Assembly (NCBI GenBank): GCA_905181885.1
Contig: CAJIZI010000001.1
Location: 573,765 to 637,764 of the forward strand
Direction of reading: 5' to 3'
DNA: 64,000 nucleotides
DNA from: an uncultured Gammaproteobacteria bacterium
GTDB taxonomy: Bacteria > Pseudomonadota > Gammaproteobacteria > Nitrosococcales > Methylophagaceae
The position numbers and the translations under genes were made by a program. The notes beneath the pieces were generated by a model. It searched no databases. It worked only from the letters and a program-made list of their open reading frames with translations, and was not told the origin of the DNA. This document shows, piece after piece, positions 2,834 to 63,469 of the stretch (positions are counted from its first letter, which is position 1; the number at the start of each line of letters is the position of its first letter).

Positions 2834-2857
2834 CTGGCTGATTTGGAGGAAAAAATA

Positions 2858-47905: not shown

Positions 47906-48114
47906 CTGAACAGCTTTTAACGAGAAAAAGAGTAGACTTCATAATGGCTATTTCAATTTTGAAAACTACAGAGAGAATAATTATTAAATCCGATTAAAAG
48001 AATGAAAAGTGGAATTACTTGAACAAATAGGACTAGGCTCACTTAACACCATAATAAAAAGCTAGCTAAGAGTCGCTGGGTCAAAACAAATGAACTAAAG
48101 GACACAAACAGGCT

Positions 48115-48870
48115 ATGACAAAAGGTAGTAACAAACTGGCTTGGATTACCGGAGGTGGTACCGGAATTGGCAAAGCATTGGCATTAGCTTTGGATAAGCA
48201 GGGGTGGCAAGTTATAATTTCTGGTAGAACAGAACAAAAGCTCCAGGCTGTTGTAGAGCTTGGCCAAAAAATAGCTTATCTGACGTTAGATGTAACAGAT
48301 AGGGAACAGAGTCAGCAAGTTTTTAATACCTTATACGAGAAGTACGGGTTACCGGAGGTCGTTGTTTTAAATGCTGGTGATTACACCCCGATGCCAGTAG
48401 ATGAATTTAACCTTGACTTGGTTTATAAGCTGAATCAAGTGAATTACTTAGGGGTCATGAATGGGCTAGCCTCAATATTACCTTTGATGAAAGCACGTAA
48501 ATCAGGACAAATATTACTGATGGCCAGTGTGGCGGGTTACCGGGGCCTACCAGATGCGGCACCTTATGGAGCAACGAAAGCTGCTTTAATCAATTTTTGT
48601 GAGGCGATGTATATACCCTTGAAAAAGCAAGGTGTTTTGTTACGAATAATCAACCCTGGCTTTGTAACAACACAGTTAACGGCGAAAAATACTTTTAAGA
48701 TGCCAGCGGAAATAACATCAACTGAAGCAGCAGAGCGAATAGTTAAAGCGCTTGCATCAAATAGTTTTGAAATTACATTTCCAAAGCGTTTCACCTACAT
48801 ATTAAAAATATTACGTGTATTACCTTATCGGCTTTATTTTTTCTTTACCAGTAAAATAATAGGTAAATAG
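48115..48870 (+). CDS. Short-chain dehydrogenase/reductase (classical SDR)
   Basis: TGGGTGIGKALA cofactor motif, NAG, YGATKAAL catalytic YxxxK. Confidence 0.8.
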   Translation: MTKGSNKLAWITGGGTGIGKALALALDKQGWQVIISGRTEQKLQAVVELGQKIAYLTLDVTDREQSQQVFNTLYEKYGLPEVVVLNAGDYTPMPVDEFNLDLVYKLNQVNYLGVMNGLASILPLMKARKSGQILLMASVAGYRGLPDAAPYGATKAALINFCEAMYIPLKKQGVLLRIINPGFVTTQLTAKNTFKMPAEITSTEAAERIVKALASNSFEITFPKRFTYILKILRVLPYRLYFFFTSKIIGK

Positions 48871-49296
48871 ATGATTTCAAGACAACATGCATTGAATAGC
48901 TATATTATTTTTTTTGAACAAATGAAAAGAGAAGATTTAGTGCGGTTGCCAGAGTTTTTTGCTGACCAAGCCCGCTTTAAAGATCCCTTTAATGATGTAA
49001 CAGGCATTGAGCAAATTAATAAAGTTTTTCATCACATGTTTGAGACTTTAGATACACCTAAATTTATTATTGATGAAGCTGTTTTAGAATCTGATGTTGC
49101 CTACATAAAATGGAATTTCACGGGTGCTTCAAATGCCAAGCAATTGAAACTTGTTGGGCTTAGCAGAGTGGTCTTTAATGATCGAGGCCTTGTCTCAGAA
49201 CATGTTGATTACTGGGATGCGAGTGAACAGTTTTATATGAAGCTACCGGTCATCGGCAGTATTTTACGTTTTATTCGTAATAAAGCTGCCAACTAA
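48871..49296 (+). CDS. NTF2/SnoaL-like fold protein
   Basis: 141 aa. The start abuts the SDR stop. The pattern F....ARFKDPFN...G...I..VF.HMF fits the NTF2-like family that co-occurs with SDR genes in furan-fatty-acid/photo-oxidative clusters. Confidence 0.55.
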   Translation: MISRQHALNSYIIFFEQMKREDLVRLPEFFADQARFKDPFNDVTGIEQINKVFHHMFETLDTPKFIIDEAVLESDVAYIKWNFTGASNAKQLKLVGLSRVVFNDRGLVSEHVDYWDASEQFYMKLPVIGSILRFIRNKAAN

Positions 49297-49848
49297 TTAC
49301 CAATTGAGTAGCTCTTTTCTAAGAGATTCAGATAAAGAGTTTTCGGCTAACCATAGACCGAGGTAATATCTGGCAAAGCTGATGTTGGTGTTTTGATAAA
49401 GTAATTCATCATTAAAAAACAGAGAAAGTCCTTTATCATGATGAATATCTAGACGAAAGCGGTCACCACTAGTGACGTCTTGATAAAGATCGTGCAGAGC
49501 ATTGGTATCCCTTTGATATAAAGCCAGTTTATTTTTAGTGTGTTGGCGGCTGAGAACCTCTTCTGCACTATTAATTAACTGAGACTTTGAAAGAGACACT
49601 TTATAGCGTAGTTCAAGAGAAAAAGGATGGTTGCCTCTCAGAATCTGACTTGCTTGTATATCAGGGGCGGCATAGAGAGCAGCATCATAAACATCAATAA
49701 AGCCAAGCCATGTCGCTGTAGAGGTAGACTTTAATTCAACTTCGCTGCTTGATGCATGAAAATCAAGTTGCGAGGGTGGCATAGCCCAGCTAATATTAAA
49801 AAGTAAGGAATAAGAAACCCATACAAAAAGAAGGTGCTTTTTCATCAC
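49297..49848 (-). CDS. Chalcone-isomerase-like (fatty-acid-binding type) periplasmic protein
   Basis: A signal peptide is followed by TATWLGFIDVYDAALYA and YYLGLWL motifs, typical of the bacterial Chalcone_3-like family. Last gene of the minus-strand operon. Confidence 0.55.
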   Translation of the reverse strand: MMKKHLLFVWVSYSLLFNISWAMPPSQLDFHASSSEVELKSTSTATWLGFIDVYDAALYAAPDIQASQILRGNHPFSLELRYKVSLSKSQLINSAEEVLSRQHTKNKLALYQRDTNALHDLYQDVTSGDRFRLDIHHDKGLSLFFNDELLYQNTNISFARYYLGLWLAENSLSESLRKELLNW

Positions 49849-50379
49849 TTATGGGGTTTTGAAGGTGAGTGTAACTTCACCTAAAAAAACACCAAATTTT
49901 GTCATTTTCGCCCGATTAATGAGTACGCCATCTTCTTGTAAGAACATCCAATCATCAAACTGTACTTTAACGGTCCCATCTTTGTAAGGAAGATCTAGGG
50001 TATATGCCCAATTCAGGCTGTTACCGTAAGCTTTACCAGTAGCGTGTCCAATTACATCAGCTGCTCGACCCTCATAGTTATTGTCATCAATTTTTTTAAT
50101 AGTCCACACGCGCCGGTCTTTGGTTCCGTCAGAATATGTAAAGTCTTCTTCTAGTATTAGCTCTCCATCTACCATTTTACCAAGGATATCGACAGTAAAT
50201 TGCTTCTCAACATAACCGCTTCGGTTTTGGAATATGCCCCAAGCACGTGTTTGGCCGAGGAAATAGTCTTCTAAAATTAAGCGAGGTGTAGTATTTTTAT
50301 ACTGTTCAGTAGTCATATTGGTACAGCCAGAAAGGTTGAAAAGAATGAGTGATAATAAAGTTAAGAGGCTTTTGTTCAT
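49849..50379 (-). CDS. DUF3833-family lipocalin-like lipoprotein
   Basis: Lipobox LSGC. LEDYF.G...AWGIF..R.G and W....DDW.F motifs typical of DUF3833. Confidence 0.65.
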   Translation of the reverse strand: MNKSLLTLLSLILFNLSGCTNMTTEQYKNTTPRLILEDYFLGQTRAWGIFQNRSGYVEKQFTVDILGKMVDGELILEEDFTYSDGTKDRRVWTIKKIDDNNYEGRAADVIGHATGKAYGNSLNWAYTLDLPYKDGTVKVQFDDWMFLQEDGVLINRAKMTKFGVFLGEVTLTFKTP

Positions 50380-50380
50380 A

Positions 50381-51682
50381 TTATGGTTCCTCAGTTAGTT
50401 GCTGTTGTATATGTCGGTGTTGTTGGCGATTTAACGGGAAATTCCATATTGTCCAAGCAGCTAGGAGCTTAAAAGGAATGGGAAGGAGACCATAAAGCAG
50501 AGTAAGTCCTAATAAATTATTATCAGCGGGAGCTGTTTGTGTGTCAAAGCCTAAAAAGACTAACAAAGGAAAAGCAATACCGACAGCTAATGCCAGTGAT
50601 AGCTTCGTGGCCATACCCCAAAGGCCAAAGAAAAAACCACTTCGCTGCCCGCCTCCGCCGGCGCTATCAAGATCAATCACATCGGCTTGAATTGATGCAG
50701 GTAAGGCCATGTCGATACCTAAACTTAGCCCAGATAAAATACAGACAAGAAGAAAGGGCAAAAAGTCTCCTGCTCCTATGCTGGGGACCCATGCAAAAAC
50801 ACCCACAGCCCATAACATTGACACACCCCATACACGGTGTTTGTTATAACGCTTAGCGAGCTTCACACCGATGGGTAAGCCTATCAAACCACTGATAAAA
50901 TATGCTGATAATAACAGGCCAAACTGTTCGGGCAAGACCAAAACATAGGTCACAAATAGCAAGAAGAGAGTTGCAGGTAGGCCATTAGCGATGCCATTCA
51001 TAAAATAAGCAAAGAGTAATCGTATAAATAAGTGATTGCTTTTGAGTAAAGCAAACCCTGCTCGATAACTGATAGGTTGTACACGCCGGTTAGACTCGGG
51101 TACTTTGAGAACACAAATTAGGATAGTAATAGGAAGAAGAATAGTTAAAGATTGGGCGAGAACAAGTAGTGCCTTGCCAGGTTCGTCACTAGCAATACCC
51201 ATAGCTAAGGGTAAGCCTGCAGCAAATAAAGTACCTATTAAAACAAAGCTTTCTCGGCTGGCTGTAATTGTACTACGTTGGTCATAATTCCCAGATAATT
51301 CAGCTCCCCAGGCGGTATAGGGCAGAGTGAGTAGGCTCCATGCGAAATAAACAAGAATACTCCAGAGCAAAAGCCAATAAAAACCGCTTCCTTCAGGCGG
51401 AACAAAAAGTGCCCATAGGGCTATGATTAATAATGGTGTAGCTATAACCATTAACCATTTACGCCTTGACGGCAGAGGGAGCCAATCAGAGAATATCCCG
51501 ATCATGGGATCTGTGATGACATCACTAATACGTGCAATTAATAAAGCTAACCCGACAGTGGCAAGGCCAAGGCCCAATTGCTCAGCATAAAAAGTAGGTA
51601 AGTAAATATAGAGGGGCAAACCTAACGCGGCTAAGGGTAGCCCCGGCAGACCATAAAGCCAATAGCGAATAACTTGAGACAC
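50381..51682 (-). CDS. MFS transporter (GPH / MFS_2-like)
   Basis: About 12 TM helices. Start reassigned to the GTG at 51682, 2 nt after the upstream stop, because the track ORF start at 51772 would overlap the upstream gene by 88 nt. Confidence 0.7.
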   Translation of the reverse strand: MSQVIRYWLYGLPGLPLAALGLPLYIYLPTFYAEQLGLGLATVGLALLIARISDVITDPMIGIFSDWLPLPSRRKWLMVIATPLLIIALWALFVPPEGSGFYWLLLWSILVYFAWSLLTLPYTAWGAELSGNYDQRSTITASRESFVLIGTLFAAGLPLAMGIASDEPGKALLVLAQSLTILLPITILICVLKVPESNRRVQPISYRAGFALLKSNHLFIRLLFAYFMNGIANGLPATLFLLFVTYVLVLPEQFGLLLSAYFISGLIGLPIGVKLAKRYNKHRVWGVSMLWAVGVFAWVPSIGAGDFLPFLLVCILSGLSLGIDMALPASIQADVIDLDSAGGGGQRSGFFFGLWGMATKLSLALAVGIAFPLLVFLGFDTQTAPADNNLLGLTLLYGLLPIPFKLLAAWTIWNFPLNRQQHRHIQQQLTEEP

Positions 51683-51684
51683 TG

Positions 51685-52902
51685 TTAGTGTGGTTTTGAC
51701 ATTAAGTATTGATAAACTCCGGTGTGTTGCTGCCGGAAACCTGCTTCGCAGTATGACAAATAATATCGCCACATACGTATAAATTGCTCATCGTAACCAA
51801 GATCTTCTACTTGATGTACAACATCATTAAACCGCTGATGCCAAGCTAAAACAGTCTGCTCATAATGAGAACCGTAGTTAGTGGCTTGTTCGATTTTAAG
51901 TCCTGCCTGTTCTGCATGTTGAGAAAAAATCTCAGGAGAAGGAAGCATACCTCCAGGGAAGATATAGCGTTGAATAAAATCCACATTTTGTCGATAGTGG
52001 TCAAAATACTGCTCGTCAATGGTTATTGTTTGTAGGGCTATTTTGCCTCCTGATTTTAGACGTGCAAATAACATTTCAAAAAAGCCAGGCCAATAAGTCT
52101 CGCCAACGGCTTCAAACATCTCAATACTGACAATATGATCAAACTGTTCTTCTATATCACGGTAATCTTGTAATCGTAAATCAACAATTGAATCAAAACC
52201 TGCATCACGAATTCGCTGTTGTCCCCATGTTAATTGTTCAGTCGATAAGGTAACTCCGGTTACTTTATAACCTTGCTTAGCGGCATGTTCAGCAAAGCCT
52301 CCCCAACCGCAGCCCACTTCTAGAATGTGTTGTCCAGGCTTTGCACCGAGAGAAGAAAGCAGGAGTTCATATTTTCGAGTTTGTGCTTGTTCAAGGCTAT
52401 CAGCTGGATCAGCAAATATAGCACTTGAATAGGTCATCGTTGAGTCAAGCCATAACTGATAGAAGTCATTACCTAAATCATAATGTGCGGAGATATTGCG
52501 GCGGCTACCTCGTTGACTGTTTCGTCGAGTTATATGACGCAGGCGGTTAAATAAGCGAATAAAGAAATTAGCTTCAAGGTGGGTTGATAATTCTTCTAAG
52601 TTGAGTGTAGCCCAGTAGAGGAAGTCAGATAGACTACTTGTGTCCCACTCGCCTTGCATATAGGCCTCGGCAAAGCCAATATCACCATCTCTGCTTAACT
52701 TTTTAATGATTTTTAGGCTTTTATGAATGGTGATGTTTGCATCGGGTCCGGGCTCCTTTCCCTCAACAAGGTAAGTTTCGGCATCAACTGTAATATGAAG
52801 GCGACCTCGCTTACATTTTGATAACACTTGATAGAGCAGCTTGATTGTGAGCGGCGCACTGGGATCAGGAAGTAATCTTATTTTCGAGTTTTCACTAACC
52901 AT
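51685..52902 (-). CDS. Cyclopropane-fatty-acyl-phospholipid-synthase-family SAM methyltransferase (UfaM-like)
   Basis: 405 aa. HYDLGNDFY, ILEVGCGWGGFA and FEAVG motifs of the CMAS family. Confidence 0.8.
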   Translation of the reverse strand: MVSENSKIRLLPDPSAPLTIKLLYQVLSKCKRGRLHITVDAETYLVEGKEPGPDANITIHKSLKIIKKLSRDGDIGFAEAYMQGEWDTSSLSDFLYWATLNLEELSTHLEANFFIRLFNRLRHITRRNSQRGSRRNISAHYDLGNDFYQLWLDSTMTYSSAIFADPADSLEQAQTRKYELLLSSLGAKPGQHILEVGCGWGGFAEHAAKQGYKVTGVTLSTEQLTWGQQRIRDAGFDSIVDLRLQDYRDIEEQFDHIVSIEMFEAVGETYWPGFFEMLFARLKSGGKIALQTITIDEQYFDHYRQNVDFIQRYIFPGGMLPSPEIFSQHAEQAGLKIEQATNYGSHYEQTVLAWHQRFNDVVHQVEDLGYDEQFIRMWRYYLSYCEAGFRQQHTGVYQYLMSKPH

Positions 52903-53660
52903 TCGCTTTTGACCTCTTGCTGTTTATTTTTGTCATATGAATGAAACTTTCCACCGCGTATCCATATTTTCAATGCGTGCCAATGGATCATGAACATGAT
53001 TTTGAAAGTCATCATTGGCATCATAAAAAAGGCCTTGAGCAAATGTAAGTTGTTTAAGGTTTTAATTTTAGAATTTTGAGATGCAATAAAATGAAGTTGA
53101 TCATTTTGGTATTCGTTGATTAAAATACCGAATCTAGCTTCAGATTGAGTAAATTTAAAGTGATATTGTTGATCCATATCAATGAATGGGGATACATAAA
53201 AGCGCTTTTCTGCAATGCATTCCACCGGCCACTTTAGGCTTTGTCCTTCATTGTGATGGACATAATGATAAGCATCTCCAAAGGTATTACTGACCTCACT
53301 GATAACCGCAACAGTTTCCCCATCTGAACCATCACAATACCAAACAGAGATGGGATTAAAGCCATAACCCAAAACACGAGGGAAGCATGATAATCGGATG
53401 CGATCAACATTGTCTATTCCTGCATCAGATAATGTTTTTTCTACCCAAGGCCGCCAGGCCGTTCCATCTCTAGGACCATGATCCTGCTTTCGGAGACTGA
53501 GTAAATTAAACCGCTCTAAACTAAGCCATCTCAAAGAAGAAGCTTCTTGCTCAATAAGATCTATATCAATCAATAACCCGAAGACCTTATAGGTAAACTG
53601 GTAGGCTACAGGGAGTATGCGTTGGTGCATGACATGCCCAAAAAAGAGCTTACTTGCCAT
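52878..53660 (-). CDS. DUF1365-family protein (UfaO-like)
   Basis: 260 aa. G.V.H.R..P..Y.F.Y start and the FNPISVWYC motif typical of DUF1365. Overlaps both neighbours. Confidence 0.7.
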   Translation of the reverse strand: MASKLFFGHVMHQRILPVAYQFTYKVFGLLIDIDLIEQEASSLRWLSLERFNLLSLRKQDHGPRDGTAWRPWVEKTLSDAGIDNVDRIRLSCFPRVLGYGFNPISVWYCDGSDGETVAVISEVSNTFGDAYHYVHHNEGQSLKWPVECIAEKRFYVSPFIDMDQQYHFKFTQSEARFGILINEYQNDQLHFIASQNSKIKTLNNLHLLKAFFMMPMMTFKIMFMIHWHALKIWIRGGKFHSYDKNKQQEVKSEWLVKTRK

Positions 53661-54948
53661 TAGCTACTCCCTGTTCCCAAGGAATAGGAACGTTTAACTC
53701 TCTAGCGATAGAAACAGCAGAACTCAGCGCATCCTCATGGAAGCCATAACCAAAGTAACTTCCTGCAAACCAAGTTCTATTTTGACCCTGTAACTTATAA
53801 AGTTGTTTCTGAGCCCCCATCGCACGATTATCGAAAACAGGGTGCATATAATTAATTCTACGAATAATCTTATGAGGAGCAATTTTATGAATTGGGTTTA
53901 AGCTAACAAAAAAGTTTTGTGAGTCATCTAGGCCCTGTAATGCATTCATCCAATAACTGACAGACACCGAAGGAGTAGTCTCACCACTCTGCTTTGCAAG
54001 ATAATTCCAGCATGACCAAACTTTTGAGAGTGTTGGCATGAGATTGGGATCAGTATGTAAATAAGTATCATTTTCTTGATAGCGGAATGAAGATAACAAG
54101 TCTTGTTCAAGTTTGGACTTATTTATGAGTAGAGATAAAGCTTCATCAGCATGAGTTGCAATAATAACTTGGTCTACATTAAGTTCTTGCCCGTCTTCTA
54201 ATGTAATGACAACGGAATCAGTTTTTCGATCTATCTTGGTGGCCCCATTATTGATAATCGTTTCTCCAGGAAACGAATCTAACAACTTATCGACATAGCG
54301 TTGGCTTCCACCGACAACGGTTCGCCACTGAGGGCGGTCTTTTACGTTTAATAAGCCATGATTATCAAAAAACTGAGCAAAACTTTTAGCAGGGAACGAT
54401 TGCATTTGTTGAGGTGGGCAAGACCAAATAGCTGCAGCCATGGGTAGCAAATAATCATCCTGCATTGGTTTACCAATGCGTAGATCAGAGAGGAAGTCAC
54501 CTAAAGTGAGTTTAGAGTCAGTTTGATTATTACTGATAAGTGCTTTGGCATTTCGATTAAACTTAAGGATGTCATAAACTAACTTGATAAATCGTGGAGA
54601 TAACAGATTTCTCCGTTGGGCAAATAAAGTATCTAGATTGTTACCGGCATATTCCAGGCCTGAATTTAAGATCGAAGCAGAGAAGGTCATGTCTGTCACT
54701 TGTGTTTTTACACCAAGAGTATTTAGCAAACCGACTAAATTTGGGTAGTTTGGTTCGTTATAGACAATAAATCCTGTATCGACAGCAGTAACAATACCTG
54801 TCTTTTCATTAGCCACTGAAATGGTATTGGTGTGCCCGCCAATATAGTTATTTTTGTCGATCAAAACTACTTTGTACCGTTGACTTAATAGCCATGCACT
54901 AGCCATTCCAGCAATACCAGTTCCTATGACGGCTATTTTCTTAGTCAA
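53650..54948 (-). CDS. FAD-dependent oxidoreductase, amine-oxidase-like (UfaD-like)
   Basis: 432 aa. IAVIGTGIAGMASAWLL dinucleotide-binding motif. C-terminal WFAGSYFGYGFHEDAL. Confidence 0.75.
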   Translation of the reverse strand: MTKKIAVIGTGIAGMASAWLLSQRYKVVLIDKNNYIGGHTNTISVANEKTGIVTAVDTGFIVYNEPNYPNLVGLLNTLGVKTQVTDMTFSASILNSGLEYAGNNLDTLFAQRRNLLSPRFIKLVYDILKFNRNAKALISNNQTDSKLTLGDFLSDLRIGKPMQDDYLLPMAAAIWSCPPQQMQSFPAKSFAQFFDNHGLLNVKDRPQWRTVVGGSQRYVDKLLDSFPGETIINNGATKIDRKTDSVVITLEDGQELNVDQVIIATHADEALSLLINKSKLEQDLLSSFRYQENDTYLHTDPNLMPTLSKVWSCWNYLAKQSGETTPSVSVSYWMNALQGLDDSQNFFVSLNPIHKIAPHKIIRRINYMHPVFDNRAMGAQKQLYKLQGQNRTWFAGSYFGYGFHEDALSSAVSIARELNVPIPWEQGVANGK

Positions 54949-55016
54949 AATGTTTTCCTTAAGCTCGTAATAGAATTATGACCAATATAAGCTTTATTTA
55001 TCATAAGCTTTATTTA

Positions 55017-55934
55017 TCATAATATTTTCTTTCCTTTAGTTAAGATGTTGTTTAGTGCAGGTGCAAGACGGGGATATGTAAAATTAAACCCATTTTCTAA
55101 TGCTCGCTGAGGTACTGCACGTTGCCCTGTTAATAATAAAGAAGACATTTCTCCTAAGAGTATTTTTAATAGCCATTTAGGTGCAGGAAGCAGTTTGTAT
55201 CGGTGTAGTTGTTTAGCAAGCTCAGTGGTGAACTCATGATTAGTAACAGGGTTGGGGGCAGAGGCATTAAAAACACCTTTTAAATCCTTATTCGATGCTA
55301 AAAAGATTAATAAATTAATCATGTCAGAAATATGGATCCAAGGCATGTACTGATGGCCGTCACCTAGAGTGCCTCCTAAATTGAATTTAAAGGGCAATAA
55401 CATTTTTTGTAACATGCCACCCTTTGATGCCAACACTAAACCTGTTCTAACGATACACACTCTTATACCTGCTTTACCTGCTTGCAATGCTTGCTGTTCC
55501 CAAGCAGCACAGAGCTTATGGGTGTATTCATCGTGATATTTAGATTCTTCCGTTAAAATTTGGTCACCACTATCACCATACCAACCAACGGCTGAGCCGC
55601 TAATGAAACATTCTGGCTTTTGTTTTCTATTGAGGATCCAATTAACAAGCTCTCGTGTTGTGTTGATGCGACTGGACTCTAGCAACTTTTTACGTTTATT
55701 TGTCCATTTAGCGTTAGCAATCGGTTCACCTGCAAGGTTTATCACAATATTTATAGTGCTATCAGGTAATATTTCGGTTAAAGATTGAATAGCTTTAACG
55801 TTGATGCCACATTTATCTTTAACAGTATTAGGGGTTCTACTAATCACAGTTACATTGTGTCCTTCAGCTATTAACTGTTGACATAATTTTGAGCCAATTA
55901 GACCTGATCCACCGGATATAAGGTAGTGTTTCAT
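55017..55934 (-). CDS. TIGR01777-family (YfcH-like, DUF1731) NAD-dependent epimerase/dehydratase-fold protein
   Basis: 305 aa. ISGGSGLIGSKL Rossmann motif and a C-terminal DUF1731-like L..GF.F.YP segment. Confidence 0.7.
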   Translation of the reverse strand: MKHYLISGGSGLIGSKLCQQLIAEGHNVTVISRTPNTVKDKCGINVKAIQSLTEILPDSTINIVINLAGEPIANAKWTNKRKKLLESSRINTTRELVNWILNRKQKPECFISGSAVGWYGDSGDQILTEESKYHDEYTHKLCAAWEQQALQAGKAGIRVCIVRTGLVLASKGGMLQKMLLPFKFNLGGTLGDGHQYMPWIHISDMINLLIFLASNKDLKGVFNASAPNPVTNHEFTTELAKQLHRYKLLPAPKWLLKILLGEMSSLLLTGQRAVPQRALENGFNFTYPRLAPALNNILTKGKKIL

Positions 55935-56020
55935 AAGATAAAGACTTTACCTTTATTTGAACTCAGTATTATTAAGTTAAAACCATTTCTAACTACTTGT
56001 GAGCTTTTTTAATATGTGTA

Positions 56021-56059
56021 AAAAAAAAGCAACGGCATTAGTCAATGTCGTTGCTTTTA
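56021..56059 (-). terminator. Strong (bidirectional-looking) Rho-independent terminator ending the AlkB-like operon
   Basis: 13-bp stem AAGCAACGGCATT / AATGTCGTTGCTT with loop AGTC. Flanked by an A9 run on plus (T9 for minus-strand transcripts) and by T4. Confidence 0.8.
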
Positions 56060-56078
56060 TGGGTTTAACTAGGCGCTG

Positions 56079-56282
56079 TTATTTAAACCATTCAAACGGG
56101 CGTTCACCAGCAATTTTGAAATACAAAGACATATTGATCATATGTACAACAAGCAATGCAATGCCAATCCCAACAGCCCATAATGGGTTTCTGAAGTGCT
56201 CATGTGCACCAATGGCAACAAGACCATAAAATGCGATAGCTGTCCAGATAACCATAACTATTAAAGCTTTGAAAGAAGCCAT
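56079..56282 (-). CDS. Small two-TM membrane protein of unknown function (67 aa)
   Basis: The ATG at 56282 has GGAG 6 nt upstream. Two hydrophobic helices (ALIVMVIWTAIAFYGLVAIG, LWAVGIGIALLVVHMI). Third gene of the AlkB-like operon. Confidence 0.55.
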   Translation of the reverse strand: MASFKALIVMVIWTAIAFYGLVAIGAHEHFRNPLWAVGIGIALLVVHMINMSLYFKIAGERPFEWFK

Positions 56283-56350
56283 ATTTATCTCCAATTTAAA
56301 GTTTAAGTAACGAAGCTAACTTAATAACCGCGGCTTATTTTTTCTTTCAG

Positions 56351-57424
56351 TTACTGTGGTTTGTGACTCTTATCTAGGAATTTATCATAGAATATCGAAT
56401 CTTTGGTAATACCGTTTTTCTTGAATACACTAATAGATGCGTCAATCATGCCGGGTGGACCACAAAGATAAGCTTGGCCCCTGAGTGCCTTTCTAGAATC
56501 TTTGATAAAATCTACACAAGAACCTCTATTTCCTTCCCATGAGCTATCTTCTGGCTCTTCTGATAGGCAAGGAATATATTCGAACCTTCCAAGACCTTTA
56601 CTTACCCAATCTGACCCTAATTTTTCAATTAAGTCACCAAGGTATAGATCTTTTTGTTCCCGAGCGCCAAAGATGAAGCGAACATCAGCCATTCTGCCTG
56701 ATTCAAGTGCATCTTGTAGAACACCTACAATAGCACTCATGCCACTACCACCTGCGACACAGGTCATTTGAGCAGGCTTTTTGGCCAAACCAAATACACC
56801 ATAGGGGCCGCTCATCGTCATAGTTTCTCCGGTACGATCACCCTCAAACAACCAGTCGGTAAATTCACCACCAGGGACTTTTCTGATGTAGAACAAGAAT
56901 TCTTTTTGACCAAGACTTGGTGCTGTTGCAAATGAGTAACTACGCCCTTCGTCAAGATGGGGTAGTTTCAGATCTGCATACTGACCAGCTTTATACAAAA
57001 GCTCTGTCGATGAGACTGCAGAGTCGTCAATTTCAATGACAAGCTCTTTGATATCATGTGTTAAGTCACGGATCTGCTTAATAACTGTTTCCGATTCCCA
57101 ATGAAGTTGTCCTTCACCAGCAAGAAGTTCAACTTCAACTTCTATATCAGTCTTGAGTGCCGTTTGACACGCTAGAATGTAGTTATTTTGTAGGTCCTCG
57201 GCTTCTAAGGTATATGCAAAATCAGCTAAAGGATTTATTTTACCTTCAATTAAGCGACATTTGCATGAACCACAGCTGCCTACTCGACAATCATGTGGCC
57301 AAGGTATTCCGGCTTCGAGCGCTGTCTGTAAAAGGTTGTCACCAGCTTTTACAGTCACCACTTCAGTGCCATTTATCTTGGCGGTAGTTTCTTGTTTTTC
57401 TTTACTTTTGAAAAAACCAAACAT
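56351..57424 (-). CDS. XylA/CymAb-type electron-transfer protein: N-terminal plant-type [2Fe-2S] ferredoxin fused to an FNR-like FAD/NAD(P)H reductase
   Basis: CRVGSCGSCKC...ILACQT (Cx4Cx2C...C), RSYSFA FAD motif and GGSGMSAI NAD motif. Lies directly downstream of the membrane hydroxylase gene. Confidence 0.8.
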   Translation of the reverse strand: MFGFFKSKEKQETTAKINGTEVVTVKAGDNLLQTALEAGIPWPHDCRVGSCGSCKCRLIEGKINPLADFAYTLEAEDLQNNYILACQTALKTDIEVEVELLAGEGQLHWESETVIKQIRDLTHDIKELVIEIDDSAVSSTELLYKAGQYADLKLPHLDEGRSYSFATAPSLGQKEFLFYIRKVPGGEFTDWLFEGDRTGETMTMSGPYGVFGLAKKPAQMTCVAGGSGMSAIVGVLQDALESGRMADVRFIFGAREQKDLYLGDLIEKLGSDWVSKGLGRFEYIPCLSEEPEDSSWEGNRGSCVDFIKDSRKALRGQAYLCGPPGMIDASISVFKKNGITKDSIFYDKFLDKSHKPQ

Positions 57425-57476
57425 AATTTATTTATCTTTAAGTTATGAGTAGCAACGAGTATGCGTTACTAGTTTT

Positions 57477-57516
57477 AAAAAAAAATGGGCCCAATGTCAA
57501 AGACATCGAGCCCATT
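57477..57516 (-). terminator. Intra-operon hairpin + T9 (terminator/attenuator) between hydroxylase and reductase genes
   Basis: On the minus strand: AATGGGCTCGATGTCTTTGACATTGGGCCCATT followed by T9. An imperfect stem with two mismatches. Confidence 0.55.
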
Positions 57517-57526
57517 CAGGTTTTAT

Positions 57527-58708
57527 CTAGATTGGAGCATGTTTTGAATAATCATCTGGTACGGCGTAGCCAGATTGTTCATTAATTCTTGCAGCAATCT
57601 CTAACTCGCCTTCTGTAGCGAAATCTCTGTCCCATGTTGCTAATTTTTTCTTCATCATCATATGGTATAGAGGTGGAATTAACGCTACAGTAAACTCTGT
57701 AAAGTAACCCCAACGAGCGTTTGGTGAACCTACTTCATCTAATTCCCAGAAGTGAGTTTCGCCACGGTCATGGTGATCACCTTGACGACCGATTTCAATG
57801 AAGAACCAACTTGTGAACAAGTTGCTGTTATCCCATGAATGACGGTAATCAATTGGTTGACCTTTTTCACGAATAAGACCGTAATGCTCCATGTAGTTCA
57901 ACGCTTCTAACTCAAAGTTAGAAATAGTTAATACTAAGAACATTGCAGCTACACCCATAACACCACCAGCATAAGTAAATAATACTAATGTTGGTAAGCT
58001 CATGAAGTAACCACGGATCCAACGGTTTTCAGTTGAAAGGAATGATTTGCCTAATTTAGCTAGACGAGTCTGTTCCATTCTGAACAAGAATTTTGATTGA
58101 CCCATGTGTGACAACCAGAAATGTCTGTAGATAGAACGACCGCGTGGCGAAGTAGCAGGATCATCTTCATGTGCTAGTTCTAGATGGTGGTTGTATACGT
58201 GAGCATACGCAAAGTGTGAAGAACCACTTAAACCCATCATCAAACGAGAAATAACAAAGCTGAAGCCTTTAGTATGAGATAACTCGTGTCCGTAGATAAT
58301 ACCGATACCAGCGAAGATACCTGTAGAAGCTGCAGCAACTGCTAACTCAAGACCTGTAATACCATTTGTCATCGGTATCATGCCGTATAACATAGTAGTT
58401 GTGATAGCAGTACCATCTACATACTGCATTACACGCCATGCTAGAGCAACTTGTAACAAAGCAAATACAGGTAACATAACGTACATTACTGTGTTTTGTA
58501 ATGTTGGCATGCCCATTGTATCGCCGTTGTCATCAAAGCCAGCACCTGGTGGGTGGAAAGGCATAGTGATTGTATCAAGAATGATACCGACACCAAATAG
58601 TGCGATACCTACCCAGACGAACATTCCGCCCAGTATAATACTTGCTAGCGTTACTAATATTAGTATTGGTGCTAGCCAGTATCTGATGTTAATTAAGAGC
58701 TTTTTCAT
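57527..58708 (-). CDS. AlkB/XylM-family integral-membrane non-heme di-iron hydroxylase (fatty-acid-desaturase superfamily), divergent member
   Basis: 393 aa and multi-TM. His boxes HELSH, HVYNHH and NYMEHYGL. The last box reads GRQGDHH instead of the AlkB-type RHSDHH. No rubredoxin gene is nearby. Confidence 0.75.
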   Translation of the reverse strand: MKKLLINIRYWLAPILILVTLASIILGGMFVWVGIALFGVGIILDTITMPFHPPGAGFDDNGDTMGMPTLQNTVMYVMLPVFALLQVALAWRVMQYVDGTAITTTMLYGMIPMTNGITGLELAVAAASTGIFAGIGIIYGHELSHTKGFSFVISRLMMGLSGSSHFAYAHVYNHHLELAHEDDPATSPRGRSIYRHFWLSHMGQSKFLFRMEQTRLAKLGKSFLSTENRWIRGYFMSLPTLVLFTYAGGVMGVAAMFLVLTISNFELEALNYMEHYGLIREKGQPIDYRHSWDNSNLFTSWFFIEIGRQGDHHDRGETHFWELDEVGSPNARWGYFTEFTVALIPPLYHMMMKKKLATWDRDFATEGELEIAARINEQSGYAVPDDYSKHAPI

Positions 58709-58842
58709 GGTATAAATACCCCGTAAAAATTAATTTTAATATATTGTTGATAAACAACTAGGTAAGCAAAAACTTACTGTTTATATTAGTCGAAAAATTT
58801 CGAACTAGTAGCCATCATATTTGACAACCTTGACATTTGTAA

Positions 58843-58882
58843 TACGTAATTATACAAAGAAAGATTATTGTATAACTACGTA
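58843..58882. promoter_or_regulatory. Operator copy 1: inverted repeat TACGTAATTATACAA-N10-TTGTATAACTACGTA
   Basis: 15-10-15 inverted repeat with one mismatch, about 150 nt upstream of the AlkB-like ATG. Two TTGACA hexamers (58821-58826 and 58830-58835) lie just to its left. Confidence 0.6.
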
Positions 58883-59021
58883 TATTGTTACTAACTTTTA
58901 AACTCTATAAAGTTATATTATTCTTATAAATCAATTGTATAAGTAAAAATTTATATTACTTTTCTCAACCAATGTATTCAGAACCAATGAGCATTCTATG
59001 CTGAGAGTAGCTTGTTTGAAA

Positions 59022-59060
59022 TACGTAATTATACAAAGAAATCATATTGTATAACTACTA
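59022..59060. promoter_or_regulatory. Operator copy 2: GTAATTATACAA-N10-TTGTATAACTAC with overlapping candidate promoter
   Basis: Same arms as copy 1, 179 bp to its right. The right arm TTGTAT (59047-59052) sits 17 nt from TACTAT (59070-59075), a plausible sigma70 promoter about 25 nt before the ybgA-like ATG. Confidence 0.6.
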
Positions 59061-59098
59061 GGTTGTTGTTACTATACATATAGTAGTTAGAGGATATA

Positions 59099-59905
59099 AT
59101 GAAAATTAAAGTTGGATTAAGCAGCTGTCTGATGGGTAACAACGTTCGTTTCGATGGTGGCCATAAACACTCGAAGATGTGTAGTCAGAATTTAGCTCGT
59201 CATTTTGATTTCATCTCAGAAGGTTCAGAATTTGGAATTGGGATGGGAACCCCCAGGAAACCAATTCGTCTGATTGGTGATGTTAACTCACCTTTAACCG
59301 TTTCAACTCAGGACAATGCTATCGACCATACTAAAAAAATGGTTGAATTTAGCTACCAAAAAGCCAAAGAATATTCAGAGCTACCTATAGAAGAGTCAGG
59401 CAGGTTAATAGCCCCCTCGTTGGGTGAAAACTTTATTACCCGTGTTTTTGCTTATCATAAATGGCAGCAATTAAAACAGGTTGGCTTTACCTACCACGGT
59501 ATCATCGAGTTTCACTCAAGCTATAAATATAGCTTGATGGCACATTCACCAGCCAGCTACATTGAGCTTGGGAGAATGTTAGCTGATGCGGGTAAGCGCG
59601 AGGTCGATGATTTAGCTGAGTGCTACTTCCCCTTGTTAATGAGTGCACTAGGTAAAGTTGCGACACGAAAAACACACACTAACGTGCTGATGCATATACA
59701 GGGCTACTTAAAAAGAGTGCTCTCTAGCATAGAGAAACATGAGTTATCCAAGCTTATTAATCAGTATCGTTTAGCTCAAATACCCTTAATCGTTCCGATA
59801 ACATTATTAAAACACCATTTTAGTAATCATCCTCATTCCTATATAGCTAAGCAAGTCTATCTAGAGCCTTACCCTGATGACTTGAGCTTACGCAATGCAA
59901 TCTAA
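59099..59905 (+). CDS. YbgA-like DUF1722 protein with a degenerate, truncated N-terminal DUF523-like segment
   Basis: The N-terminus KVGLSSCLMGNNVRFDGGHK resembles DUF523. The usual PVCPE is SEGSE here and about 55 residues (the SPSCG region) appear to be missing. The C-terminal two thirds (ENFITRVFAYHKW...YKYSLMAHS...HTNVLMHIQGY) fit DUF1722. It lies upstream of the photolyase gene, like E. coli ybgA-phr. Confidence 0.65.
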   Translation: MKIKVGLSSCLMGNNVRFDGGHKHSKMCSQNLARHFDFISEGSEFGIGMGTPRKPIRLIGDVNSPLTVSTQDNAIDHTKKMVEFSYQKAKEYSELPIEESGRLIAPSLGENFITRVFAYHKWQQLKQVGFTYHGIIEFHSSYKYSLMAHSPASYIELGRMLADAGKREVDDLAECYFPLLMSALGKVATRKTHTNVLMHIQGYLKRVLSSIEKHELSKLINQYRLAQIPLIVPITLLKHHFSNHPHSYIAKQVYLEPYPDDLSLRNAI

Positions 59906-60803
59906 AAATGAAATTAATATAAGTGAGGTATGCCAACAAACAGGTGTTGCTGCAGTTACATTGAGAGCATGGGAAAGGCGTTATGGGCTCATAAAACCAA
60001 AAAGAACACCAAAAGGTCACCGCTTATATAGCCAGGCTAACATTCAAGAAATAATTAAGATTGTTGGCTGGCTGAATCGTGGAGTGGCAATTAGTAAAGT
60101 TGTAGAATTACTGTCTGCTGCAGAAACGCCAACGCAAGTCAGCGGAAATGAAGAGTCATGGCAGGAAGTACAGCAAGAACTGTTAAGTATACTCATAGAT
60201 CTTAAGCAGAGAAGTTTGAATCCACTTCTCGATAAGTTGAATAAATCAATGCCATTTGAAAGCTTGTGTGAAAAAGTTTACCAACCACTTTTGCATCAAC
60301 TAATGGAACGTTGGCAAAGTAAGCAACTGGGCTATCAATTAGAACAGCAGCTCTGGCAGCAATGCTGGCAGAGGCAGGTAACTCTCATGGCCTTGCGTGC
60401 TGATAAGCAAAAATCGCGAGTTAATTGTTGGTTAGTCAACTTAGACAACCAATCGTCGGCATTTGATTATTGGTTTTTTTATGCTCTTTTATTACAGTCG
60501 GGTATTCAGATCAATGCCATTAATCAGGTGAGTGACTTGAGTGCTCTGACAAGGCTTAGAAATTCACTAGAACAACCCTTAATTATTTTCGGTGATAACA
60601 AAATGGTTACGCAAGAAATTAATCAAGTAGTTAAGGCCAAGGCTCTATGGGGCAGGGATTCAATTGTCATTGGTCTTGTGGCTGACATACATCAGAAGCT
60701 ATTTGTAAATATGGAGATTGAGCACATAGGTGGCAATGCCATTACATGTTGGCAGTCAAGTTGTTACCAGTCATGGGTTGGGCGTTTGGCAGCAAAGGGA
60801 TGA
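59895..60803 (+). CDS. MerR-family transcriptional regulator, LitR-like architecture without recognisable B12 ligands (class II LitR-like)
   Basis: MerR HTH (ISEVCQQTGVAAVTLRAWERRYGLIKPKRTPKGHRLY) plus a C-terminal domain of about 200 aa. Overlaps the ybgA-like stop. Its own stop overlaps the photolyase ATG (ATGA). Confidence 0.7.
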   Translation: MQSKNEINISEVCQQTGVAAVTLRAWERRYGLIKPKRTPKGHRLYSQANIQEIIKIVGWLNRGVAISKVVELLSAAETPTQVSGNEESWQEVQQELLSILIDLKQRSLNPLLDKLNKSMPFESLCEKVYQPLLHQLMERWQSKQLGYQLEQQLWQQCWQRQVTLMALRADKQKSRVNCWLVNLDNQSSAFDYWFFYALLLQSGIQINAINQVSDLSALTRLRNSLEQPLIIFGDNKMVTQEINQVVKAKALWGRDSIVIGLVADIHQKLFVNMEIEHIGGNAITCWQSSCYQSWVGRLAAKG

Positions 60804-62206
60804 GAAATCAGTTAGTTTGGTTTCGTAATGATCTACGGATAAATGATAATCCGGCCTTATTTTATGCAAGTGAAAGCGGCGAGCCCACTATTGCTGTTTA
60901 TGTTGCAACGCCACAGCAATGGCAATTACACGATGATGCTCATAGTAAAATAGATTTTTGGCGACGAAATCTACATTGTTTGTATGATTCGCTTGCAGAA
61001 CTCAATATCACTTTGCATTTTTTTCAGGTACCGACTTATCAACAGGTCCCAGATCTAATTACATCAGTTTGTGAGCAATGGAATATAAGTCAACTACATT
61101 TTAATCAACAGTATGCTGTCAATGAACAGGAAAGAGATCAGCATGTCGTCGATGTTTGTAGTCAGATAGATGTGCAAACACACAGCTATAATGAGCAGTT
61201 ATTATTAACACCAAAAAGTGTTCGAACTAAAGTTGGTGAGCCGTTCAAAGTCTTTACGCCCTTTGCAAGACAGGCAAGACAACAAATGCAAGAGCCCTTG
61301 GTGATGCTACCAGCACCCAAAAGACAAAATAGTATTAAAGTGACTCGCTTGCGTGAAGAGCTTGAGCTTCAAGACGTATCTTGGGTATCTGTAGGAAAGG
61401 CTGTACAAGATATGTGGCCTGCAGGTGAAGAGTCAGCAGAAGTTAAACTAATCCATTTCTATGAGAACAATATTCAGAGTTACGAACAAAACCGAGACTC
61501 CCCATCGGTTTCCGGCACCAGCCAGCTATCTCCTTACCTAGCTAGTGGTGTTATTTCGATAAAACAATGTTGGCATGCTACAACTCACTATTGTGGGCGT
61601 TCAGATAGCGTAATAGTATGGCAGAATGAATTGTTATGGCGTGAGTTTTATAACCACATTCTTATTGATTACCCTCAAATATCAAAACATAAGCCATGGA
61701 AAATAAAAACAGACACTATCCAGTGGCGAGATAATGAGACTGAATTGAGAGCCTGGCAACTAGGGCAAACTGGTTTTCCAATTATTGATGCAGCGATGCG
61801 TCAGTTGCTCAGTTGTGGCTGGATGCACAACCGCCTAAGAATGATTACAGCGATGTTTTTAAGTAAACACTTAATGATCGATTGGCGATTAGGCGAACGA
61901 TGGTTTATGAAACATCTCATTGATGGAGATTTAGCTGCTAATAATGGAGGTTGGCAGTGGTGCGCATCAACAGGCACCGATGCAGTACCTTATTTTAGAC
62001 TATTCAATCCTGTCAGACAGTCTGAAAGATTCGATCCAGAAGGGAAGTTTATCCGCCATTATTTACCAGAGCTATCAGCTTTAAGTAATAAAGAAATTCA
62101 TTTCCCAATAAAAAACAGACCTGAAGAATACCCGATGCCTATAATTGATCTAGCTGATGGGCGTAAGCGAGTCCTTGCAGAATTCAAGGCATTAGGTACG
62201 AAGTGA
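60800..62206 (+). CDS. phrB: Deoxyribodipyrimidine photolyase (class I CPD type)
   Basis: Start at MRNQLVWFRNDLRINDNPAL. TGFPIIDAAMRQL, GWMHNRLRMI, NNGGWQW and YFRLFNP motifs. Confidence 0.92.
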   Translation: MRNQLVWFRNDLRINDNPALFYASESGEPTIAVYVATPQQWQLHDDAHSKIDFWRRNLHCLYDSLAELNITLHFFQVPTYQQVPDLITSVCEQWNISQLHFNQQYAVNEQERDQHVVDVCSQIDVQTHSYNEQLLLTPKSVRTKVGEPFKVFTPFARQARQQMQEPLVMLPAPKRQNSIKVTRLREELELQDVSWVSVGKAVQDMWPAGEESAEVKLIHFYENNIQSYEQNRDSPSVSGTSQLSPYLASGVISIKQCWHATTHYCGRSDSVIVWQNELLWREFYNHILIDYPQISKHKPWKIKTDTIQWRDNETELRAWQLGQTGFPIIDAAMRQLLSCGWMHNRLRMITAMFLSKHLMIDWRLGERWFMKHLIDGDLAANNGGWQWCASTGTDAVPYFRLFNPVRQSERFDPEGKFIRHYLPELSALSNKEIHFPIKNRPEEYPMPIIDLADGRKRVLAEFKALGTK

Positions 62207-62611: not shown

Positions 62612-63469
62612 ATGAAGATACCTAAACAAATCCAGCCCCTTGTTGATGATGGCCTAGTCGACGACGTCATGAGTCGACTGATGAGTGGTAAAGAAGCAGA
62701 TGTATATGTTGTGAGGTGCGGTAGTGAAATTCGCTGTGCCAAAGTCTATAAAGATGCCGCCAAACGAAGCTTTAAAAAAGCAGTGCAATACCAAGAAGGT
62801 CGAAAAGTTCGTAACAGCCGACGCGGTAGGGCGATGGAAAAAGGTTCAAAGTTTGGGCGTAAGCAACAAGAAGAAACATGGCAAAATGCTGAGGTGGACG
62901 CGCTTTACCTTCTAGCTGGAGCGGGTGTGCGGGTCCCACAACCTTATGATTGTCTCAATGGTGTGTTGTTAATGGAGTTGATCACCGATGAGAATGGGGA
63001 AGTAGCTCCACGCCTTAACGATATATCGATGTCTGCTGAACAAGCACGGGAAGATCATTTAGTCGTTATGCACTATGTGATGCGAATGCTTTGTGCCGGT
63101 ATAGTGCATGGAGATCTATCTGAGTTTAATGTCTTGGTTGATGTAAATGGCCCCGTAATTATTGATTTACCTCAAGCAGTTAATGCAGCTGCTAATAACA
63201 ATGCACAATCGATGTTGAAACGGGATGTGGACAATATGACTCGTTATTATAGCCAATATGCTCCAGAGCTAATCAAGAGTCAGTATGGCAAAGAAATATG
63301 GGCATTATTTGAGAATGGTGAGCTACAGCCAGAGACCGAACTCACAGGCCATTATGCAGAAAATACTCAAGCTGCGGATGTTGATGGTGTGATGCTTGAG
63401 ATTAAGTCAATTATAGAAGAAGAGCAAGACCGGCAACAGCGTTTGATGGAAGCAGAGAAAGATGGTTAA
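62612..63469 (+). CDS. RIO1-family serine protein kinase (bacterial PA4780-like)
   Basis: 285 aa. SGKEADVY, LLMELI and IVHGDLSEFNVLV (catalytic loop) followed by IDLPQAV. Confidence 0.8.
   Translation: MKIPKQIQPLVDDGLVDDVMSRLMSGKEADVYVVRCGSEIRCAKVYKDAAKRSFKKAVQYQEGRKVRNSRRGRAMEKGSKFGRKQQEETWQNAEVDALYLLAGAGVRVPQPYDCLNGVLLMELITDENGEVAPRLNDISMSAEQAREDHLVVMHYVMRMLCAGIVHGDLSEFNVLVDVNGPVIIDLPQAVNAAANNNAQSMLKRDVDNMTRYYSQYAPELIKSQYGKEIWALFENGELQPETELTGHYAENTQAADVDGVMLEIKSIIEEEQDRQQRLMEAEKDG

Follow-up and report, generated by a model that had tools for sequence, protein, structure and literature searches.

Do a photolyase operon, a LitR-type regulator gene, a set of furan-fatty-acid genes and a membrane oxygenase operon, standing back to back on one bacterial chromosome, constitute one photoprotection module, or are they several units that share a neighbourhood? 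The question is raised by 64,000 nucleotides (nt) from an uncultured Gammaproteobacteria bacterium (contig CAJIZI010000001.1, positions 573,765 to 637,764); this whole stretch is called the window hereafter, and the block under study occupies its positions 48115-62206. A preliminary description of the block, made from the letters alone, had proposed one module for the protection of membranes and DNA against light, with six members that had no assigned role in it. The reading preferred here, to which a probability of roughly 0.6 is given, is that the block is a mosaic neighbourhood of photoprotection and membrane-lipid genes, organised in separate transcription units that are controlled in at least two ways. 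Photolyase, LitR and furan-fatty-acid genes are already known to be contiguous, and the window is a variant of a known system.

The open reading frame (ORF) map was checked across 44-64 kb, and families were assigned with Pfam and NCBIfam profiles and their curated cutoffs. All of the ORFs that had been listed are present at their coordinates and every family assignment was matched. The GC content of the window is even, about 0.39, and the closest named relatives are Methylophagaceae and Methylophaga. The genes of the block, from left to right, are as follows.

48115-48870, plus strand: short-chain dehydrogenase/reductase (SDR; Pfam adh_short), convergent with the ufa operon
48871-49296, plus strand: SnoaL_2/NTF2-like protein (Pfam), paired with the SDR and likewise convergent with the ufa operon
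49297-49848, minus strand: periplasmic chalcone-isomerase-like (CHI-like) protein (Pfam Chalcone_3, E 3e-16), with an N-terminal Sec-type signal sequence
49849-50379, minus strand: DUF3833 lipoprotein (Pfam DUF3833, E 5e-65; lipobox LSGC)
50381-51772, minus strand: MFS_2 (GPH-family) inner-membrane transporter (Pfam MFS_2, E 6e-69)
51685-52902, minus strand: CMAS-family fatty-acyl methylase dependent on S-adenosylmethionine (SAM), in the UfaM position (Pfam CMAS, E 1e-88)
52878-53660, minus strand: UfaO-type DUF1365 protein (Pfam DUF1365, E 8.5e-73)
53650-54948, minus strand: UfaD-type FAD oxidoreductase, a fatty-acyl desaturase (Pfam Amino_oxidase/NAD_binding_8; role from PMC7380195)
55017-55934, minus strand: TIGR01777/DUF1731 (YfcH/SDR39U1-type) NAD-dependent oxidoreductase (NCBIfam, 358 bits vs a cutoff of 207)
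56079-56294, minus strand: 71-amino-acid protein with two transmembrane segments, the ORF that closes the AlkB-like unit
56351-57424, minus strand: Fer2-FAD-NAD(P)H reductase (Pfam Fer2/FAD_binding_6/NAD_binding_1)
57527-58708, minus strand: AlkB-like membrane di-iron oxygenase or desaturase (Pfam FA_desaturase)
59099-59905, plus strand: RudS-like (YbgA-like) gene, the first of the rudS-like-litR-phr operon (Pfam 2-thiour_desulf and DUF1722)
59895-60803, plus strand: LitR/CarH-family MerR-type regulator (Pfam MerR_1)
60746-62206, plus strand: class I CPD photolyase (CPD, cyclobutane pyrimidine dimer) of the PhrB type (Pfam DNA_photolyase and FAD_binding_7; NCBIfam PRK10674)

The MerR/photolyase and MFS/CMAS overlaps in this list are probably artefacts of choosing the longest ORF. 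The real start of the MFS gene is probably near 51680, because the MFS gene of a sister genome (locus L002) begins at the CMAS stop, and the true start of the photolyase gene is probably near 60800.

The operator consensus used is that of PplR1 from Pseudomonas, T(G/A)TACA-N12-TGTA(C/T)A (PMC9758184). Three perfect boxes occur in the window, where 0.01 is expected; two of them lie within the 390-bp divergent region between the alkB-like and rudS-like genes, each inside a 40-bp direct repeat and 179 bp apart, a spacing much wider than that of the Pseudomonas mendocina pair.

58840-58879 (core 58851-58874, TATACAAAGAAAGATTATTGTATA), no strand assigned: LitR operator 1, in the second copy of the 40-bp unit, 143 bp upstream of the alkB-like ATG
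59019-59058 (core 59030-59053, TATACAAAGAAATCATATTGTATA), no strand assigned: LitR operator 2, in the 40-bp repeat unit, 45 bp upstream of the rudS-like ATG
1859-1882, no strand assigned: third LitR operator, at a distance of about 55 kb, placed upstream of two glutathione S-transferase (GST)-like genes with frameshifts (about 2167-3623)

The two GST-like ORFs beside the third box share 49% and 43% identity with the two GSTs encoded in the AlkB-like operon of locus L082, and both are split across reading frames, so that they are either pseudogenes or assembly errors.

For comparison, a DUF1365 profile was used to collect 80 genome loci (numbered with L) from gamma- and alphaproteobacteria, in which partner genes were located by tblastn and ORF profile searches. 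In these loci, 1.3 Mb in all, only five LitR boxes were found at one mismatch or less, and four of the five are within 300 bp upstream of cluster genes, namely MerR/AlkB-like (L002, a single box between litR and alkB-like), the Amino_oxidase gene (AmOx; L010), SDR and AmOx (L024) and TIGR01777/Phr (L064, 20 bp upstream of TIGR01777). In the window, no LitR box with two mismatches or fewer precedes TIGR01777, ufaD or SDR, and the total count is below the shuffle mean. Moreover, two intrinsic terminators stand between the LitR-box region and the TIGR01777/ufa genes, and both are conserved in L087; the one after the small ORF is kept in L001 and L087 and absent in L002. Two promoter candidates of other kinds complete the regulatory features.

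57483-57517, minus strand: terminator/attenuator hairpin between the alkB-like and reductase genes (16-pair stem, then a T-run; an equivalent exists in L087)
56020-56054, minus strand: intrinsic terminator after the 71-amino-acid ORF (GCAACG...CGTTGC, then T9)
54975-55004, minus strand: sigma70-like promoter candidate before ufaD (ATGATA-N18-CATAAT), overlapping a tandem duplication
48058-48085, plus strand: RpoE (sigma24)-type promoter candidate for SDR-SnoaL (AAAGCTA-N16-TCAAA, -10 context GGGTCAAAAC)

Consequently, several units of the preliminary description have to be redrawn. Its AlkB operon is present as a gene set, but the strong hairpin at 57483-57517 splits the alkB-like gene from the reductase gene. 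Its seven-gene unit stands for six tightly coupled genes, but TIGR01777 is set apart from them by a 68-bp gap with the sigma70-like promoter candidate, whose counterpart in L087 reads ATGACA-N18-CATAAT. The same gap carries an exact 16-bp tandem duplication (ATGATAAATAAAGCTT x2, window 54970-55005), which is absent in L087 and L001. The single module itself survives loosely, as a gene neighbourhood and a functional theme, but is not supported as a single regulatory unit, given LitR boxes beside alkB-like and rudS-like only, the terminators, and a different candidate promoter for SDR.

That last candidate came from an alignment of five genomes (the window, L001, L002, L003 and L004), in which two conserved islands lie upstream of SDR. 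They fit the RpoE consensus GGAACTT-N16-TCAAA / (T/C)GGTCAAAA (PMC1312014), a motif of low information content, and no rpoE gene was seen in the window. In addition, the sister genomes L003-L005, which are devoid of TIGR01777, have G(G/A/C)AACTT-N16/17-TCnTA at 62-70 bp before ufaD. A scan with AAC[TA]T-N15-18-GTCn[TA]A gave mostly matches in antisense CMAS coding sequence, and only three AACTT matches stood before a cluster gene, which was AmOx in L003-L005. The ChrR-type sigmaE motif, TGATC-N16-18-CGTAW, has no match in the whole 64-kb window, and a Pfam search of 30 other window ORFs for extracytoplasmic function (ECF) sigma or anti-sigma factors, LOV domains and cryptochromes found none, only housekeeping and other cellular chromosomal genes. 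The ChrR-type motif does precede Phr, AmOx and DUF3833 in many alphaproteobacterial loci. In L043, L053, L055 and L061 it lies inside the operon just upstream of DUF3833 (at about 13.3-13.4 kb), and this suggests that the accessory genes there have a promoter of their own within the operon.

The three core ORFs on the minus strand are of the UfaD, UfaO and, putatively, UfaM types, as the preliminary description had recognised. UfaO belongs to DUF1365 and forms the furan ring using O2, and in Rhodopseudomonas palustris the furan fatty acid (FuFA) 9M5-FuFA requires the genes RPA2571-RPA2570-RPA2569 (ufaD-ufaO-ufaM), which also suffice for it (PMC7380195). The window order ufaD-ufaO-CMAS (54948->51685) is that of these validated genes. 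Furthermore, the Amino_oxidase gene is directly upstream of DUF1365 in 79 of the 80 loci and CMAS adjoins DUF1365 in 78, that is, the triad is kept as a unit. The CMAS protein is below all of the NCBIfam cyclopropane fatty acid (CFA)-synthase cutoffs (286 vs 400, 262 vs 600 and 240 vs 650 bits), and its family, its synteny and these missed cutoffs together point to a putative UfaM.

Partner frequencies were counted in the 49 loci that have at least 6 kb on both sides of the DUF1365 anchor (full loci). The MFS gene is found in 29 of them (59%), in 26 of these 29 on the same strand downstream of the anchor, SDR in 26 (53%), DUF3833 in 24 (49%; always on the same strand and downstream), SnoaL in 19 (39%), photolyase in 17 (35%), CHI-like in 15 (31%; same strand, downstream and always last in the operon), the MerR-type regulator in 13, RudS in two, TIGR01777 in two (4%) and AlkB-like in one (2%). 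Therefore, among the six members to which the preliminary description could give no role, NTF2-like, CHI-like, DUF3833 and MFS recur across alpha- and gammaproteobacteria, whereas TIGR01777 (2/49) and AlkB-like (1/49) do not. The TIGR01777 protein, which matches SDR39U1 in the Protein Data Bank (PDB; 4b4o, E 4e-47), adjoins ufa genes only in L001, L002, L064 and L087 and is a lineage-specific neighbour.

The recurrent accessory genes face the envelope. The AlphaFold2 model of the DUF3833 lipoprotein, built on an alignment of 39 sequences, is a ten-strand barrel (pLDDT 93.9), and the Foldseek matches of this predicted fold are calycin-type barrels: BFA1, nitrobindin/THAP4 (TM 0.65), the FABP-like Ycf58, CpeS and polyketide spirocyclases. 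PDB sequence searches with DUF3833 and the CHI-like protein gave no meaningful matches. An MFS_2 transporter, a DUF3833 barrel and a CHI-like protein suggest a role in handling a hydrophobic product within the envelope rather than in making it, a reading which fits with the finding that deletion of RSP1087-1089 in Rhodobacter sphaeroides gave no fatty-acid phenotype (PMC7380195).

The AlkB-like protein matches the AlkB structure 8sbb (E 8.6e-27) over the core only, at about 30% identity, and no NCBIfam model. About 120 relatives share 67-98% identity, and the family as a whole extends from 62 to 98% across marine genomes and phage contigs. The boxes HEL(S/A)H, HVYNHH and NY(M/L)EHYG are conserved across the relatives (HELSH, HVYNHH and NYMEHYG in the window), and the third box is GRQ(G/A)DHH throughout (GRQGDHH in the window), where Q occupies the position that the first His has in the canonical AlkB box HSDHH. 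On these motifs the window protein is placed in a distinct AlkB-like subfamily with Q in the third His box. The reductase is BenC/MmoC-like, yet under the NCBIfam cutoffs; it accompanies the AlkB-like gene in L081-L083, L086, L087 and L089, and it is the probable electron donor of the AlkB-like enzyme. A gene for a protein of 67-71 amino acids lies 3' of the reductase gene in L081, L082, L083, L086, L087 and L089. In L002, a 78-83% relative, a tblastn match to the 71-amino-acid protein is 77% identical, and a stand-alone 2Fe-2S ferredoxin of 103 amino acids (7107-7418), which shares 70% identity with the window reductase at its N-terminus, substitutes for the full reductase. L002 also has no terminator before TIGR01777, and alkB-like through CHI could be one 10-gene transcript.

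This small unit is found in very different company. In Methylophaga sulfidovorans and other genomes (L081-L083 and L086) the AlkB-like gene comes first in an operon that also encodes a truncated globin, a ferredoxin, a GST, a Fer2-FNR reductase and the 67-71-amino-acid protein; it is divergent from VWA-CbbQ genes in three of these four loci, and two of them have a gene for a FadL-like channel downstream. A lone relative (81%) stands in a lipopolysaccharide (LPS)-core locus (L085), and a 91%-identical gene is on a T7-like phage contig (L084, 9001-10179), which also carries DNA polymerase A, primase-helicase, endonuclease I, ribonucleotide reductase (RNR) and tail genes. Relatives of 62-94% identity are encoded by 186 contigs of IMG/VR, and the search of GenBank phages gave only a distant Acinetobacter phage alkB (32% identity); viral alkB has been reported earlier (bioRxiv 10.64898/2025.12.08.692962). 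In the relatives of 95% identity, VWA-CbbQ genes are divergent from alkB-like-reductase-small ORF, after which comes TIGR01777-ufaD-ufaO in L087 and a FadL-like gene in L089. The VWA and CbbQ/NorQ-type AAA pair, chaperones of the metal-centre maturation type, is usually divergent from the AlkB-like genes (L081-L083 and L086-L089), and in the window the rudS-like-litR-phr operon stands in its place. Judged by these contexts, the AlkB-like/reductase/70-amino-acid unit is best described as an independent module. In L087-L089 the region upstream of alkB-like holds a perfect LitR box whose extended flank is the same, with no litR adjacent; hence the box seems to travel with the module in this lineage. 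Light control of the alkB-like gene in this lineage is plausible on that comparison, and the unit appears to have been drawn into a LitR regulon here.

On the other side of the divergent region, the best PDB matches of the MerR protein are Thermus thermophilus LitR 3whp and CarH 5c8d (E about 2.5e-13). These closest solved structures and the perfect operators beside the gene bear out the LitR-like assignment that had been made from the sequence. A B12-binding_2/MlrA_helical match is sub-threshold (residues 89-145, E 0.0086), and the single-sequence AlphaFold2 model is poor (pLDDT 47), so it was not used for fold search. The CarH cap motif is W-x9-E-H, which together with a His lower ligand defines the class I that binds adenosylcobalamin (AdoB12). 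The window protein reads W-x9-E-Q and its sequence has no ExH-type ligand motif; the AdoB12 class I motifs are not matched and B12-dependent sensing appears unlikely. As the B12 ligand residues are absent, light sensing would probably proceed via a partner photoreceptor, which is a plausible arrangement. Class II LitR consists of a helix bundle only and works with a short LOV partner. The photolyase passes the curated PRK10674 equivalog (516.8 bits vs a cutoff of 506). The first protein of the operon has a full-length DUF1722 (residues 143-259, E 4.9e-42); its 2-thiour_desulf match is restricted to profile positions 1-91 of 141. In an alignment with four full-length RudS homologues its TudS site reads GSE in place of CPE, and an in-frame deletion of 45 residues takes out SPSCG, so that the protein lacks this segment along with two of the three [4Fe-4S] cysteines. 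The desulfidase active site is evidently destroyed, by this alignment, and only DUF1722 remains, as in Escherichia coli YbgA. The rudS gene is wholly lost from the sister genome L002.

Against the mosaic reading, light or singlet oxygen might still induce the whole 14-kb block coordinately, as one module that LitR controls, perhaps together with a ChrR-type sigmaE whose gene lies elsewhere. The nine-gene polycistron of P. mendocina is a precedent for it, as are the alphaproteobacterial TGATCC-N16-CGTA promoters before Phr, AmOx and DUF3833; other gammaproteobacteria have LitR boxes directly before AmOx (L010, L024), SDR (L024) and TIGR01777 (L064), and L002 has all genes from alkB-like to CHI running in the same direction after a single LitR-box region. 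The window itself speaks against it: no LitR box before TIGR01777, ufaD or SDR, no ChrR-type motif anywhere in the 64 kb, two conserved terminators between the LitR-box region and the ufa operon, and an RpoE-like candidate at SDR. Common control of the whole block is therefore judged unlikely. The triad, for its part, might make no furan fatty acids at all, if its CMAS were a paralogue of the RSP1089 type or a synthase for cyclopropanes or methyl branches and AmOx/DUF1365 acted on another lipid. This draws on R. sphaeroides, whose linked CMAS has no detectable role; but the functional UfaM of R. palustris is encoded by the linked gene at this very position, three genes are sufficient there, the triad is kept in 78 of 80 loci, and the window CMAS misses every NCBIfam cyclopropane-synthase cutoff, which leaves a block devoid of furan fatty acids very unlikely.

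A further alternative is that the adjacency of AlkB-like (and TIGR01777) is incidental, so that a hydrocarbon or xenobiotic cassette has no tie to light or lipids and both LitR boxes serve rudS-litR-phr only. The single occurrence in 49 loci, the company of globin, ferredoxin, GST and FadL-like genes, of an LPS locus and of a T7-like phage, and the lack of LitR boxes in the more distant AlkB-like contexts and in the viral comparison set (80 alkB-like viral loci, L090-L169, 786 kb) are all as expected for such a cassette; moreover, P. mendocina has two LitR sites (Site 1 and Site 2) at one promoter. It accounts less well for the perfect box with the same flank in L087-L089, where litR and phr are not adjacent, for the wide spacing of the window boxes, for a third box before homologues of GST genes that belong to AlkB-like operons elsewhere, and for an alkB-like/TIGR01777-ufa adjacency that the window, L002 and L087 have all kept although the opposite side is rearranged. 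An incidental cassette is possible but doubtful. At the opposite extreme, the Q-box AlkB-like system could be a LitR-controlled, light-induced enzyme for the oxidation or desaturation of membrane lipids, or of hydrocarbons generated by light, in concert with the furan-fatty-acid pathway; this is a speculation and quite unlikely. If it were true, the phage-borne viral alkB, which is of the same family and has no partner genes, would be a gene for membrane remodelling and not for alkane degradation.

Several observations weigh against the mosaic reading or parts of it. The operators are near-palindromic and sigma70-like hexamers overlap them on both strands, so that the promoter controlled by each box is ambiguous; both window boxes might serve only rudS-litR-phr, and the box in L087 is 94 bp from the divergent VWA-CbbQ genes vs about 405 bp from alkB-like. 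The LOV signature (NCRFL), expected of a partner photoreceptor, is absent from the six frames of the window and of L083 and L087. The RpoE-type -35 before SDR is weak in the window (AAAGCTA), and close to ufaD GGTCATAAT is retained there, with no RpoE-type -35 at the right spacing. Finally, R. sphaeroides does not need its operon-linked CMAS, RSP1089, for FuFA, and its true UfaM is unlinked (PMC7380195).

Taken as a mosaic, the block would work as follows. The rudS-like, litR and phrB genes form a translationally coupled operon, and in the dark the LitR/CarH-family repressor would be bound to the operators in the 390-bp divergent region. Light would relieve this repression, probably via a partner photoreceptor, and the photolyase would be made when it is able to work. 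The alkB-like/Fer2-FNR reductase/71-amino-acid unit may have been recruited beside the photolyase operon, bringing or sharing a LitR operator, and is probably light-controlled. Behind the terminators, UfaD, UfaO and the CMAS would convert the vaccenate chains of phospholipids to methylated furan fatty acids, and the co-transcribed MFS_2, DUF3833 lipoprotein and periplasmic CHI-like protein would handle the hydrophobic product in the envelope. The SDR-SnoaL pair, a conserved companion, would probably be expressed from an RpoE-type envelope-stress promoter.

To the left, the SDR gene is abutted by a tesA-ybbA-ybbP-like trio, that is, a GDSL hydrolase with a type VII ABC transporter.

44116-44739, minus strand: tesA-like GDSL hydrolase (Pfam)
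44766-45443, plus strand: ybbA-like ABC ATPase (Pfam)
45443-47905, plus strand: ybbP-like FtsX permease (Pfam)

In the distant loci L028, L035, L039, L063 and L074, from several unrelated lineages, these three genes are again no more than 10 kb from ufa genes, and L070 has part of the set. YbbAP-TesA was recently shown to pull hydrophobic compounds out of the inner membrane (PMC12646458). The trio may extend the lipid theme, and the boundary of the module may be further to the left. To the right, a PA4780-family RIO1-like kinase gene (62612-63469, 488 bits in NCBIfam vs a cutoff of 350) begins 405 bp past the photolyase gene, and no link to the block was found. At the far end of the window, the ORF at 1398-1781 matches the C-terminal half only of 4-HFC-P synthase (profile positions 115-227 of 228), and is either a truncated or frameshifted gene or has a wrongly called start.

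The presence of the core in a marine methylotroph-like gammaproteobacterium is not surprising, as it is already established in Pseudomonas, Rhodobacter and Vibrio. What the locus adds is that one gene set has lineage-dependent wiring: ChrR-type sigmaE, LitR operators or, apparently in this clade, RpoE-type promoters. In addition, accessory genes with a conserved envelope-facing architecture suggest that the lipid product is transported or handled by them rather than made, and an AlkB-like enzyme that is widespread in the sea and borne by phages may belong to a light regulon.

Among the closest known systems is that of Pseudomonas, which the preliminary description had correctly named as a light-induced LitR gene set. 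In P. mendocina nine genes (PME6650-PME6610), from ybgA-like, litR, phrB, SDR and FAD oxidoreductase to ufaM, are one light-induced polycistron; its repressor is a class II LitR that acts at T(G/A)TACA-N12-TGTA(C/T)A sites, two of them at one promoter (PMC9758184). Like P. mendocina and P. putida (the pplR1 region, for which the gene list is second-hand), the window has the ybgA/RudS-like gene, the LitR-family MerR gene and phrB in one operon, with SDR, FAD oxidoreductase, hypothetical protein and ufaM-type genes alongside, and it matches the operator consensus perfectly. Unlike the Pseudomonas polycistron, the window has its ufa genes on the other strand, behind two terminators and without a LitR box, with the AlkB-like unit between, and its RudS domain is degenerate.

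The sigmaE-ChrR (ECF11) core regulon of R. sphaeroides, whose combination of photolyase and ufa genes had also been described correctly, comprises photolyase-UfaM (RSP2143-2144) and RSP1091-1087, which encode UfaD, UfaO, a CMAS paralogue, a 186-amino-acid protein and an SDR (PMC3546557). The 186-amino-acid protein is probably DUF3833, judged by the gene order in L075-L077. The window has the same gene families (UfaD, UfaO, CMAS, SDR and photolyase), but no TGATC-N16-18-CGTA promoter and no rpoE-chrR in the ORFs scanned, and it has MFS, CHI-like and SnoaL as extra genes. RPA2571-2569 of R. palustris shows the identical order of the three enzyme types; the window is gammaproteobacterial and has three extra envelope genes downstream, and orthology is assigned from family and synteny only. 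In Vibrio cholerae, VCA0056 (MerR)-VCA0057 (phr) likewise places a MerR-type regulator in a photolyase operon and a CFA-synthase-type gene is induced by blue light (PMC5241685). Unlike the window, the blue-light response there is dominated by ChrR/sigmaE (PMC5241685), and the regulator is in a different LitR class, IV (PMC9758184); no operator is defined there.

At the level of single proteins, RudS is a TudS-DUF1722 tRNA 4-thiouridine desulfidase, and the window protein resembles it in DUF1722 and in its first position in a photolyase operon (PMC11417400). It lacks two of the three TudS cysteines and SPSCG, so it is not to be called a RudS enzyme and is closer to the DUF1722-only YbgA. The AlkB-like protein shares with the alkane 1-monooxygenase AlkB (8sbb, 8f6t) the membrane di-iron FA_desaturase fold and the motifs HELxH, HxxxHH and NYxEHYG, but it differs from AlkB in the Q of the third box and in having no rubredoxin, its partners being a Fer2-FNR reductase and a 70-amino-acid membrane protein.

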